Shown here one piece after another: positions 33,553-36,575 of a stretch of 64,000 nt of DNA. The translations under genes and the position numbers were made by a program. The notes under the pieces were generated by a model. That model did no database searches. It had not been told where the DNA came from and saw only the letters and a list, made by a program, of their open reading frames with translations. The DNA lies in IMG/VR virus record IMGVR_UViG_3300047476_001246. One strand, written 5' to 3'. Position 1 is the stretch's first letter. Each line of letters begins with the position of its first letter. Source of the stretch: a virus.

Positions 33553-33840
33553 TCACGCAATCATCCTTACCAGCCCAATCGTATCAATGGTGGTGAGCAA
33601 TATGTAGTTAGCCAGCATACCAAAGGATTTACGACTCCAAGCAGCCCAAGCATACATAGCACAACCCCCAATCCAAATAGGATATAGAAGAAGGAGTGGA
33701 GGATTGGGTACCGTGAGCGCCATTGCGACGGCGCATCCAATTGAAAGTGCCCAAGCAAGAAGCTCAATAACAAAACGTACACGGTTTGATGACCAATCAT
33801 CTCGTATCCATTGGATTATGCTCGATACAACATTGATCAA
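33553..33840 (-). CDS. Three-TM membrane protein
   Basis: Hydrophobic helices. Confidence 0.6.
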   Translation of the reverse strand: MINVVSSIIQWIRDDWSSNRVRFVIELLAWALSIGCAVAMALTVPNPPLLLLYPIWIGGCAMYAWAAWSRKSFGMLANYILLTTIDTIGLVRMIA

Positions 33841-34097
33841 AGAGTTTTACCTACTGTTTGAAGAATAGTGTTTAGTTCTTCGTTGTCGGCGTTCTCGTCG
33901 CCTAGTTTGCTTTTATGAGCAATCTTGATTGCTTTTTTAAGAATGGCAGGTTTGATTTCCATTTCTTCAGCAATGGCTTTGATAGTGTCACTAAGTCCGG
34001 CATTGAGATCTTCAACTTCTTGCATGACTGCCATGCCTTCGTTAATGATTTGAGTAAGTTTAGCTTTTTGTTCGGAAGAGAACATACGTGAGCTCAT
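33837..34097 (-). CDS. T4 DsbA/GapR-like dsDNA-binding protein
   Basis: Helical 86-aa protein with I.E......E.....D....A.E.......L.K.I; AGGAGA RBS. Confidence 0.65.
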   Translation of the reverse strand: MSSRMFSSEQKAKLTQIINEGMAVMQEVEDLNAGLSDTIKAIAEEMEIKPAILKKAIKIAHKSKLGDENADNEELNTILQTVGKTL

Positions 34098-34121: not shown

Positions 34122-34150
34122 ATTATAGATGAATGTTTTTGCAATTGCAA
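34122..34150 (-). promoter_or_regulatory. Sigma70-type promoter
   Basis: TTGCAA-17-TATAAT. Confidence 0.7.
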
Positions 34151-34157
34151 GAAAATT

Positions 34158-34234
34158 TTGCTCACTTTAACTCTCGGGGCACGACTCCTCTGAGTAGGGC
34201 AGCAGCCGCCCACACACGGTCCTAAGGTGTGTTC
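34158..34234. ncRNA. Candidate structured RNA with three consecutive hairpins; function unknown
   Basis: GC-rich intergenic stems ACTC/GAGT, GGGC/GCCC and ACACAC/GTGTGT. Confidence 0.5.
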
Positions 34235-34414
34235 TTATTTTTTAGGTTCGCAGGTGCGTGTTCTCAGGACCGTACCGTCGGGTTGTTTCTGTTCCTTCCA
34301 TTCGGAACACGTTTGAGTTTCGGTTTTTTCTGACATCAGTTGATCTACAGTCCAATTGGCTCCCATCCAACCCATTGCACTAAAAAATCCCCATACTAAC
34401 ATTTCGCCTATCAT
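34235..34414 (-). CDS. Small protein, 59 aa (not in track)
   Basis: MIGEMLVWGFFSAMGWMGANW...CSEWKE...RTRTCEPKK. Confidence 0.55.
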   Translation of the reverse strand: MIGEMLVWGFFSAMGWMGANWTVDQLMSEKTETQTCSEWKEQKQPDGTVLRTRTCEPKK

Positions 34415-34983
34415 TTTGGTAATCTTTCTTGAATAATTTGAATCACTTGATCGCTCAAAACCACTTCATAATGATTATACTCTACTTCTATTAGATCCAT
34501 GTCCTTGCCATGATGTTTCTGACTGGCAATAGTGACCACACCGTCATTTTTTCCCATTACCCAGGGAGTATCTCCTTGAGTAGTGACAATATTGCACCAA
34601 GGGTGTTGTACTTGAATTTTATTTGCTTCTCGCATGGCCCAACTGTTAGGTCCAATATCTTTGAGAAGTCTGCTGTATGGTAAAAAATATTTGGCCACAT
34701 CCGCTACCTCGGCACCACCATACGGGGTACTCAAGGTCACTGCCCCAATTACATTATCAGGAAATTTGTTTGCAAGATGCAGTGCATATATACCGCCCAA
34801 GCTATGACATATGAAAAAAACTTTTTGTAAATCTTTTATTTGATTGCCTAGGTCCTCAAGATTTTTTTGAAATCCGTTGCGACTATCGTAGTTAACAACC
34901 AAATCGTTGCCACCGAGATGTTTTCTGATGTAATTGAAACTTTCACTGGTAGCGTTTGCTCCGTGTATGTACACTAATAACAT
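34411..34983 (-). CDS. Alpha/beta hydrolase
   Basis: IHG, HSLGG nucleophile elbow, STPYGG, NDGVV and H. Confidence 0.85.
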   Translation of the reverse strand: MLLVYIHGANATSESFNYIRKHLGGNDLVVNYDSRNGFQKNLEDLGNQIKDLQKVFFICHSLGGIYALHLANKFPDNVIGAVTLSTPYGGAEVADVAKYFLPYSRLLKDIGPNSWAMREANKIQVQHPWCNIVTTQGDTPWVMGKNDGVVTIASQKHHGKDMDLIEVEYNHYEVVLSDQVIQIIQERLPK

Positions 34984-36137
34984 TATCTATACTCCAACCA
35001 AAGGTCTGCAAATTTTAATTTAAAATTTGGCCAATACGTGTCTTCTTGATTTTTATGCCATTTGTAAAGATTATCGCAATTGGTATGTGTTGGCGTGATA
35101 CTGTTTAAACTGTTGGCCATGTCCTCTAGGAATCTTTCCTGTACTGGGGAATAGTGATATTGCATGGACTTTTTAAGTTCGTCAATTGCTTTTGAAATGA
35201 ATTCTTTTGGTAGACTAGCAACACTTAAAATGTTAGGATGGTGCAATTCATTCCAACGCATCATTGGTATGTCGTTGTCGGCAAAGTATTCGTGCAGCGT
35301 CGACAACTGTAAGGCATTATAAACACAATATTGACTGGTGATTCCAATCCTGTGACCAGGACTCTGTTTGACGCTTTCTTTCAAATACTTTAGATTTTCT
35401 AGCATGGTATTCCAACTGCTACCATGTCTGACATATTCAAATTGTTGTTCTACTGTTTCAAAACTGATATCCCACATTACATTTTTCTTGGTTATTAATT
35501 TTTGAAAAATACGATTGTTTGCAAGTGGAACACTTAGATTGGTAATGACATTGATAGATACGTTTTCGTCAATTGCATCTAGTAGGTAATCATTTTCTTT
35601 TTGCAACAAAGGCTCGCCGCCCAGTAAGGCCAAATTCTTTAGCGTGCTCTTGTTTGATTCAATAAACTTTACAATATCTTCAATGGTGTTATCGTAATTC
35701 AATCGATCTAGAGGTTGCTTTTTTAACGAGGCCCATTGACTACTGGCCTCTTGATCGCAGTACACACAACTTAAATTACAGGTATTTGACCAACGTATAT
35801 CTAAATTTTGTAGTTTTGTGTCGTGTACATTGTCAATGTTGATTGTTTCGTTGTTGGCAATATCGTTGTACCACGACCGTTCACTTACTGAACTGTGTTG
35901 TTCTTGTCTATAGCAGATATCACAATTGCTGTCGTGCTTGTTGTCAACAATTGATTTTTTTATTTCGATCAGTTTGTGATCTGAGAGCAAATTGGTGATT
36001 GGGGTGGTTCGTAAATCACCAATTGATTTGGTTCCGGCACAACATGTTTTAAATGTACCACCGGTATTGATATGAATATTGGTCCAAGGGGCATAACAGA
36101 AATTAGGGCCAATTTCGTTGCTAAGTTTTATAGACAT
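34983..36137 (-). CDS. Radical SAM protein with N-terminal SPASM/twitch-like domain
   Basis: C..PW...CC, CxxC, CNLSCVYC, GGEPLL and YVR.G..W. Confidence 0.85.
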   Translation of the reverse strand: MSIKLSNEIGPNFCYAPWTNIHINTGGTFKTCCAGTKSIGDLRTTPITNLLSDHKLIEIKKSIVDNKHDSNCDICYRQEQHSSVSERSWYNDIANNETINIDNVHDTKLQNLDIRWSNTCNLSCVYCDQEASSQWASLKKQPLDRLNYDNTIEDIVKFIESNKSTLKNLALLGGEPLLQKENDYLLDAIDENVSINVITNLSVPLANNRIFQKLITKKNVMWDISFETVEQQFEYVRHGSSWNTMLENLKYLKESVKQSPGHRIGITSQYCVYNALQLSTLHEYFADNDIPMMRWNELHHPNILSVASLPKEFISKAIDELKKSMQYHYSPVQERFLEDMANSLNSITPTHTNCDNLYKWHKNQEDTYWPNFKLKFADLWLEYR

Positions 36138-36140
36138 ACA

Positions 36141-36575
36141 CTATTTAAGTGTACTACGTAGCATCCAAGAATGTTTTTTGTGTGCGTCCTGTCTACCAGC
36201 CAAGAAATCACTCAATCCATGCATGCCCAATTCTTCGCTAGCATTGAACACTATACGAAACATTTCGGCCATTTTGTCGCTGTCTTCGAGCAATTCCATG
36301 AGCATGGCTTCGGCTGGTAAAATTTCAACTTCGTCATCTACCAGACTAAGGATGCTGAAACGTGTAAACGAGCCCGGAGTGTATGTGCCAGTGGCTCGAA
36401 TTTCTTCAGCAAAGGTATCTATGCTACCATACACTTCTTCGTAGATTTTTGCAAACAAATCGTGCAGTTGAGGAAAATTGGGTCCTTCAACATTCCAGTG
36501 AAAATACTGTGCCTTTAAATAAAAAGCAAATTCGCTAGCAAAAGCAATTTTTAGTGCTCGTTGTAATTCGTCCAT
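36141..36575 (-). CDS. dps: Dps / DNA starvation-protection ferritin-like protein
   Basis: HWNV.G..F..LH..F...YE, D..AE and K..WML. Confidence 0.9.
   Translation of the reverse strand: MDELQRALKIAFASEFAFYLKAQYFHWNVEGPNFPQLHDLFAKIYEEVYGSIDTFAEEIRATGTYTPGSFTRFSILSLVDDEVEILPAEAMLMELLEDSDKMAEMFRIVFNASEELGMHGLSDFLAGRQDAHKKHSWMLRSTLK

Follow-up and report, generated by a model that had tools for sequence, protein, structure and literature searches.

Genomic context of the element

The window, that is, the whole 64,000-nt stretch of viral DNA analyzed here (IMG/VR record IMGVR_UViG_3300047476_001246), derives from a large, T4-like phage with nearly every gene on the minus strand. The nearest relatives of its DNA polymerase are those of Phosso, Atu_ph07, and the 350-kb Erwinia/Serratia/Escherichia jumbo phages (42–50% identity). 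A structured RNA element is located at 34158..34234 on the minus strand. It is the short form of a family and comprises P1 with loop 1, P2 with loop 2, P3 with loop 3, and a 3′ pseudoknot tail. Covariance model R1 matches it with 61 bits at 34157–34236(−) and has no other strong match in the window.

Immediately upstream is an unannotated 59-aa ORF (34235..34414, minus strand), which is outside the RNA and whose TAA abuts P1. Its product is hydrophobic at the N-terminus, has two conserved cysteines, does not match any Pfam entry, and has relatives encoded upstream of the element in 31 loci. On the 3′ side begins the sigma70-like promoter (TTGCAA-17-TATAAT, 34122..34150, minus strand) of a T4 DsbA-like gene (33837..34097, minus strand; phrog_639 and phrog_12534, with a weak PF11126 match under the cut-off), which is a common but not an obligatory neighbor of the element. 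An earlier reading made from the letters of this DNA (hereafter the sequence-only reading) had placed the element outside this promoter, and it does sit between the stop codon of the ORF and the promoter (34150..34122). TAAATA motifs, which we take to be late-promoter-like from their resemblance to T4, are present upstream at 36147, 36600, and 36803. Together with the position of the element after the ORF stop codon, they suggest that it probably forms the 3′ end of a minus-strand, late transcript. The window copy has neither a promoter of its own nor a clear terminator and would have to be released from the mRNA.

Two further genes, encoding a Dps/ferritin-like protein (36141–36575, minus strand) and a radical SAM protein (34983–36137, minus strand), are located upstream in the same apparent operon, behind TAAATA motifs. 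A terminator-like hairpin on the plus strand within the 59-aa ORF (34302–34323) is probably due to chance, as the region varies in relatives. A longer element including the 11-nt inverted repeat I3 was considered and rejected; its second arm falls inside the 59-aa ORF and lacks conservation.

Fold and strand of the RNA

The fold of the window copy alone is indistinguishable from that of shuffled sequences (z about 0), and we regard it as real because the stems covary in relatives, not because of folding energy. The three stems proposed earlier were recovered, on the minus strand. P1 (34212..34232, ACACAC/GUGUGU), supported by the fold and by family pairing, displays loop 1, and P3 with its inner helix P3b (34170..34195), supported by family pairing, displays loop 3. 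The sequences of P1 and P3 vary widely yet remain paired: family-wide, the pairs of P1 are 980 Watson-Crick, 19 G-U, and 1 A-C, and those of P3 are 1014, 151, and 2, respectively. The minus strand thus has 170 G-U pairs in P1 and P3 (172 with P2) against 3 A-C pairs. Among the matches listed, 154 of 175 copies also fold better on this strand. The large excess of G-U over A-C pairs indicates that the RNA is the minus strand and that its rRNA words are antisense.

In P2 (34197..34211), all four pairs vary on both sides and 97.9% are paired, while P3b shows compensatory changes; controls in which the strands were slid lose the pairing of both helices. The P2 loop GGCUGCU (34201–34207) is the 5′ strand of a pseudoknot with the 3′ tail AGUGAGC (34160..34166). 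This pseudoknot is indicated by loop 2/tail variants changed on both sides, including GCCGCU/AGCGGC, GCCACU/AGUGGC, GUCGCUC/GAGCGAC, GGUGCU/AGUGACC, and others. As judged from this covariation, the element is a conserved pseudoknotted minus-strand RNA of a large T4-like phage.

The rRNA motifs of the window copy

Three plus-strand motifs had been singled out as resembling rRNA functional centers, and all three were found at their positions: CAGCAGCCGC at 34200–34209, ACGGTCCTAAGGT at 34216–34228, and GCACGA at 34179–34184. They match E. coli 16S 519–528, 23S 1919–1931, and 23S 1964–1969, respectively. In 5000 shuffles of the element, an exact 13-nt rRNA match had p=0.008, against p=0.40 for an exact 10-nt match such as that to 16S, and GCACGA is present three times in 23S; within the window, therefore, the helix 69/70 match alone exceeds chance. 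The correspondence with rRNA holds as antisense to 23S helices 69–71 (H69–H71), and the suggestion of several functional centers gives way to a single region.

The match to the 16S 530 loop did not survive the comparison with relatives. Loop 2 varies, the 3′ tail changes along with it, and the pseudoknot accounts for the loop sequence, making the 16S match incidental. Two antisense roles for loop 2 were rejected on the same grounds: variants drop to 6–8 of 9 pairs with 16S 519–527, and a wobble pairing with 23S 1902–1910 is broken by variants, which track the tail in both cases. A 7-nt match of the tail to 23S 1099–1105 is at chance level. A kissing interaction between loops 1 and 3 (GAC/GUC) was discarded because loop 3 is exchangeable.

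A family of phage RNAs

Copies were gathered from loci around dsbA-like genes and by scanning viral and metagenome contigs with patterns, yielding at least about 350 distinct copies. The family ranges from uncultured freshwater phages of ~300–350 kb to cultured Vibrio phages of 120–200 kb; four near-complete phage contigs of 289–354 kb have one clear copy apiece. The matches examined in prokaryote genomes were chance only. The search for homologs near dsbA-like genes, which the sequence-only reading had advised, returned a family with covarying stems and no tie to dsbA, which is the next gene downstream in 77 of 288 pattern-derived copies among the matches listed. P1 mostly starts within a few nt after a stop codon, and the neighbors, again among the matches listed, fall into at least 35 unrelated upstream gene families and 31 downstream gene clusters. 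With neighbors so varied and dsbA in the minority, the element moves like a small gene rather than as the leader of one gene. Nor is it placed as a riboswitch or leader, being upstream of the dsbA promoter and followed by 31 unrelated downstream clusters. A U-rich stretch follows the tail in 148 of 295 copies among the matches listed.

Four minimal copies of ~65–75 nt (L055 2362–2450, L056 1164–1252, L700 3066–3156, and L623 23–127) do not have loop 3 but retain loop 1 and the pseudoknot; they would be useful as minimal constructs.

The element belongs to no Rfam family. Rfam 15 gave no meaningful match over the element in the window, in 10 long-form loci, or in the Vibrio loci, the sole contact among the 10 long-form loci being a match with E about 7 that touches one edge. 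ARAGORN and Rfam did not identify a tRNA or tmRNA in the element, and Rfam did not reveal similarity to a ribozyme. Resemblances to twister, pistol, preQ1-III, SAM/SAH, raiA, RNase P, and retron RNAs were considered and dropped because no Rfam match was obtained. None of the phage loci examined contains a sense 15-nt copy of rRNA. One of the element-bearing metagenome contigs has a tmRNA-like sequence at its edge (L391 1–107, minus strand), which scores 55.7 bits with beta_tmRNA (under the cut-off) and 49.7 bits with the permuted tmRNA model (over the cut-off of 47) and is not called by ARAGORN.

Loop 1 is complementary to 23S helices 69–70

Loop 1 of the window copy (34216..34228, minus strand) is the main guide, with 13 nt exactly antisense to 23S 1919–1931, covering the 3′ side of H69 and H70. 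The predicted duplex (−23.6 kcal/mol) is the best in 16S and 23S, the runner-up being −15.8. The core CCUUAGGAC (34218–34226) is present in 276 of 333 copies among the matches listed and is also conserved in scans without that core in the query; loop 1 is thus conserved in relatives. Long forms have an extra CUAC at the 5′ side, a hairpin ending in GUUAC at the 3′ side, or both, and each addition extends the complement of 23S 1907–1933. This region is the best antisense site in 16S and 23S for 83 of 87 loop 1 variants (51/52, 25/26, and 7/9 over the three forms), and 56 of the 87 beat all 150 shuffled rRNAs. As the variants share ancestry, these counts reflect a single genuine ancestral match, since retained, and not 87 independent events.

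The nature of the deviations is informative. The complement of 1910–1914 is GUUAC in 68, GUUAU in 19, and GUUGC in 11 of 138 copies among the matches listed, and the G-U compatibility of the two commonest departures speaks for RNA as the target. Opposite U1915, the base is Watson-Crick in 23% of cases, against 78–91% at neighboring positions. N3-methylation prevents Watson-Crick pairing. RlmH methylates pseudouridine 1915 on the assembled 70S ribosome (PMC5430550), and a free base opposite this position fits a methylated pseudouridine, hinting that the target of loop 1 is mature rRNA, though part of the freedom at 1915 may stem from the hairpin inside the long forms. The 23S sequence 1902–1937 is identical in E. 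coli, one Undibacterium genome, and one Emticicia genome.

Loop 3 is exchangeable and matches the same region

In scans without loop 3 in the query, the loop 3 position holds unrelated sequences. The version AUUCGCUAC matches 23S 1929/30–1937, and ACGCCAUUC and UUACGCCA match 23S 1968–1979; the matches to these two intervals were equalled by 0 of 210 control rRNA windows. The window copy carries version 1, AGUCGUGC (34179..34186, minus strand), which is antisense to 23S 1964–1971 with 6 nt exact and 7 of 8 overall. Its match to 1964–1969 was equalled by 34 of 210 control windows and is insignificant alone; it is persuasive only in the company of the other versions. A fourth version, found in two copies, has no clear match in 23S. 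The sizes of these classes depend on the search patterns used. Compared with a simply inverted piece of rRNA, the RNA has its guides in a permuted order. Loop 3 provides the strongest test of 23S targeting, and the four copies without it suggest that it is an optional second grip. The conserved complementarity of loops 1 and 3 to 23S thus favors one of the earlier proposals, an antisense small RNA that may act on the ribosome.

Cultured carriers and other matches in phages

Phage records were searched with 23S 1905–1940. Vibrio phages have intergenic matches to this segment on the strand that gives an antisense transcript, with the layout of the family and the loop 3 word UCGCUACC; their flanking genes are on the antisense strand, as in the window. 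A model built from the uncultured family alone finds the Vibrio copies at full length and once per genome among the whole records searched, with E-values, to be taken as rough, of 7.7e-4 for PWH3a-P1 and 3.4e-3 for 10AMN. It also matches qdvp001, R16F, P018-4, VnaP, and 11895-B1, and weakly VmeM-32. The PWH3a-P1 copy can form about 25 contiguous pairs with 23S, and its deviations from the exact complement are G-U; folding comparisons for this copy and the long forms consider the RNA alone and ignore ribosomal proteins and tertiary structure. In 11895-B1, a 12/12 sigma70 consensus is located ~15 nt upstream of the element. For the PWH3a-P1 copy, a candidate upstream promoter was rejected because it is inside an ORF and is not conserved. 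The cultured carriers PWH3a-P1, VnaP, and 11895-B1, two of which grow on V. natriegens, make the RNA testable. Phosso, Atu_ph07, and BF gave no match with the model, and the exact loop 1 word is absent from these three as well as from XbC2 and A4.

Several other matches are recorded here as separate observations. In R16F (L840 332–504), two tRNA genes are located immediately downstream of the element, and the strand given for them in the record is opposite to that given by Rfam. Within a 780-nt intergenic region of Staphylococcus phage SpP (PP468606.1; L837 801–817), 17 nt on the gene strand are exactly antisense to 23S 1908–1924, with hairpins following; R1 matches this site weakly (E 0.53), and it is possibly another RNA with a common target. 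The human gut phage MT835492.1 (L838 801–820) has a 19/20 match to 23S 1909–1928 and, ~110 nt further on, a second 8-nt piece (1925–1932); a weak R1 match covers the site. Several GenBank "phage" records of 2–7 kb (matches H38–H57) are apparently host rRNA contigs.

Proposed mechanism

The family, its fold, strand, and pseudoknot, and the conserved complementarity to H69–H71 are established by comparing sequences. That the RNA pairs with 23S in some role is very likely. It is also likely that it represents a widespread class of phage ncRNA that pairs with H69–H71 through exchangeable guides on a pseudoknot scaffold and controls the joining, storage, or turnover of ribosomes. For the role itself, we lean towards a model in which the RNA would bind H69–H71 on free or late-immature 50S and block subunit joining.

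We infer as follows how the RNA is expressed, freed from the mRNA, and paired in the cell, and what this leads to. A phage RNA of about 80–110 nt would be formed, in the window as the 3′ end of the minus-strand transcript. The pseudoknot between P2 and the tail, a structure derived from covariation, would make a compact core projecting two loops. Loop 1 would pair with 23S 1920–1931, the hairpin insert of the long forms would extend the pairing into the H69 loop (1910–1919), and loop 3 would hold a neighboring strand of the H67–H71 junction. In 70S the target is buried, whereas free 50S exposes it and late pre-50S particles leave it flexible. By unfolding H69/H70, the duplex would prevent the 30S subunit from joining, such that the RNA would act as an anti-association factor and remove part of the 50S pool. 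A duplex on 1910–1937 should be incompatible with bridge B2a, making blocked subunit joining the likeliest direct effect. An antisense PNA on H69 blocks translation, as covered in a review (PMC12828698), and H69 and H71 are flexible in undocked pre-50S (PMC11260487). As a plausible sequel, 23S might be turned over. RNase E starts 23S decay by cutting after 1942 when the subunit interfaces are exposed, as in free subunits (PMC4931109). The guides flank this site without covering it, leaving 1938–1950 uncovered. The RNase E site would then probably be exposed, which we consider the weakest step. Several considerations weigh against the blocking model: the window copy offers only 13 nt and a weak 6-nt grip, four copies do not have loop 3, and the inactivation of ribosomes is not obviously useful to a lytic phage that needs them.

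Alternative explanations

The dependence of the phage on ribosomes would suit a protective placeholder that shields H69–H70 of free 50S from host nucleases or toxins, or keeps H68–H71 undocked, and is later released. All the complementarity evidence applies to it equally, YjgA-type proteins hold H68/69 undocked and thereby aid maturation (PMC11260487), and the 13-nt short form is reversible in principle. We nevertheless consider this reading unlikely, because the long-form duplexes of about 25 bp would be difficult to release, no release factor is linked to the element, and the guides do not cover 1938–1950, where the 1942 cut site is located. A snoRNA-like guide whose pseudoknot core binds a protein and which recruits an enzyme of the phage or host (a nuclease, modifier, or ligase) to H69–H71 would be in keeping with the conserved non-guide core and exchangeable guide loops, the unpaired position at 1915, and the AGUA/GAA-type internal loop in some P3 stems. 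However, the neighboring gene is not fixed, inspection of alignments A1–A3 did not reveal C/D or H/ACA boxes, and the loop 3 versions do not converge on one target nucleotide; together these make it improbable. Similarly improbable is a cis element of the mRNA that catches 50S released at the adjacent stop codon, as a bacterial analog of the TURBS-type rRNA pairing of caliciviruses, or protects the 3′ end. The start of P1 near a stop codon, the lack of an own promoter in most copies, and the U-rich stretch after the tail (148/295 among the matches listed) favor it. On the other hand, stop-codon proximity is expected in genomes that are compact throughout, the neighbors vary freely, the downstream gene frequently has its own promoter, the 11895-B1 promoter is directly upstream of the RNA, and 3′-end protection would leave the complementarity unexplained.

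A ribozyme or riboswitch acting internally, with the rRNA matches as inherited accidents, would have the pseudoknot, conserved loops, and real fold in its favor. It is very unlikely, since it explains neither the convergence of unrelated loop 3 sequences on one 50-nt stretch of 23S nor the conserved unpaired extensions of loop 1, and neither Rfam similarity nor a functional link to downstream genes was found. The sequence-only reading had also proposed a plus-strand rRNA mimic that absorbs ribotoxins, and the rRNA words are indeed in sense on that strand. The stems carry G-U pairs on the minus strand only (172 against 3 A-C), this strand folds better in 154/175 copies among the matches listed, and the flanking genes in the window and the Vibrio phages are on the antisense strand, so that such a decoy is highly improbable. 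At the DNA level, the element might imitate the rDNA sequence recognized by an I-CeuI-type endonuclease or by some other protein that binds rDNA, and the I-CeuI site overlaps the matched interval. With the match split across hairpin loops, permuted, variable by wobble, and embedded in strand-specific RNA stems, we give this reading hardly any credence.

Comparison with known systems

Literature searches did not uncover a description of this element, although it may be an unnamed entry among the 10,000 candidates of a viral RNA survey (PMC10690425), nor did they uncover one of any natural phage RNA pairing with the functional core of bacterial rRNA. Such pairing, if confirmed, would give viruses a new way of controlling translation, and the RNA would be an antisense agent shaped by evolution whose target, a nearly universal site of the ribosome, has hitherto been attacked by synthetic PNA alone. 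The RNA is also relevant to the question of whether host ribosomes are recycled, stored, or remodeled by phages.

CopA/CopT of plasmid R1 and RNA I/RNA II of ColE1 present seed loops held by stems, and their loop-loop contact can zip to a duplex. The phage RNA likewise has its seeds in hairpin loops on covarying stems, and its long forms mirror the H69 hairpin. CopA and RNA I are encoded in cis, and their complementarity to a plasmid RNA is complete, whereas the phage RNA is trans-encoded, permuted, and pseudoknotted, with host rRNA as its target. It is not a cis-antisense RNA, because the target is the host 23S and the complementarity is partial and permuted; as in trans-acting small RNAs, a conserved seed is complementary to a target encoded elsewhere. 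The snoRNA and archaeal sRNA guides and chaperones (H/ACA, C/D, and U3) pair in trans with rRNA via scaffold-held segments. Unlike them, the phage RNA has no boxes seen and no known protein partner, its host is bacterial, and its origin is a phage. A cis-antisense RNA of Helicobacter pylori pairs with the 23S–5S precursor and alters its cleavage (PMC6582327). That RNA is chromosomal, targets a precursor leader in cis, and involves RNase III, whereas the phage-encoded RNA is aimed at the mature functional core, and the 13-bp duplex of the window copy is probably too short for RNase III. The synthetic PNA against E. coli H69 (Kulik 2017, reviewed in PMC12828698) shares the target helix but is an artificial oligomer, for which we know of no described natural counterpart. 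Among protein factors, YjgA, ObgE, and RsfS act on free or immature 50S (PMC11260487). Like these factors, the phage RNA would act at the H68–H71 interface, as a base-pairing RNA instead of a protein.
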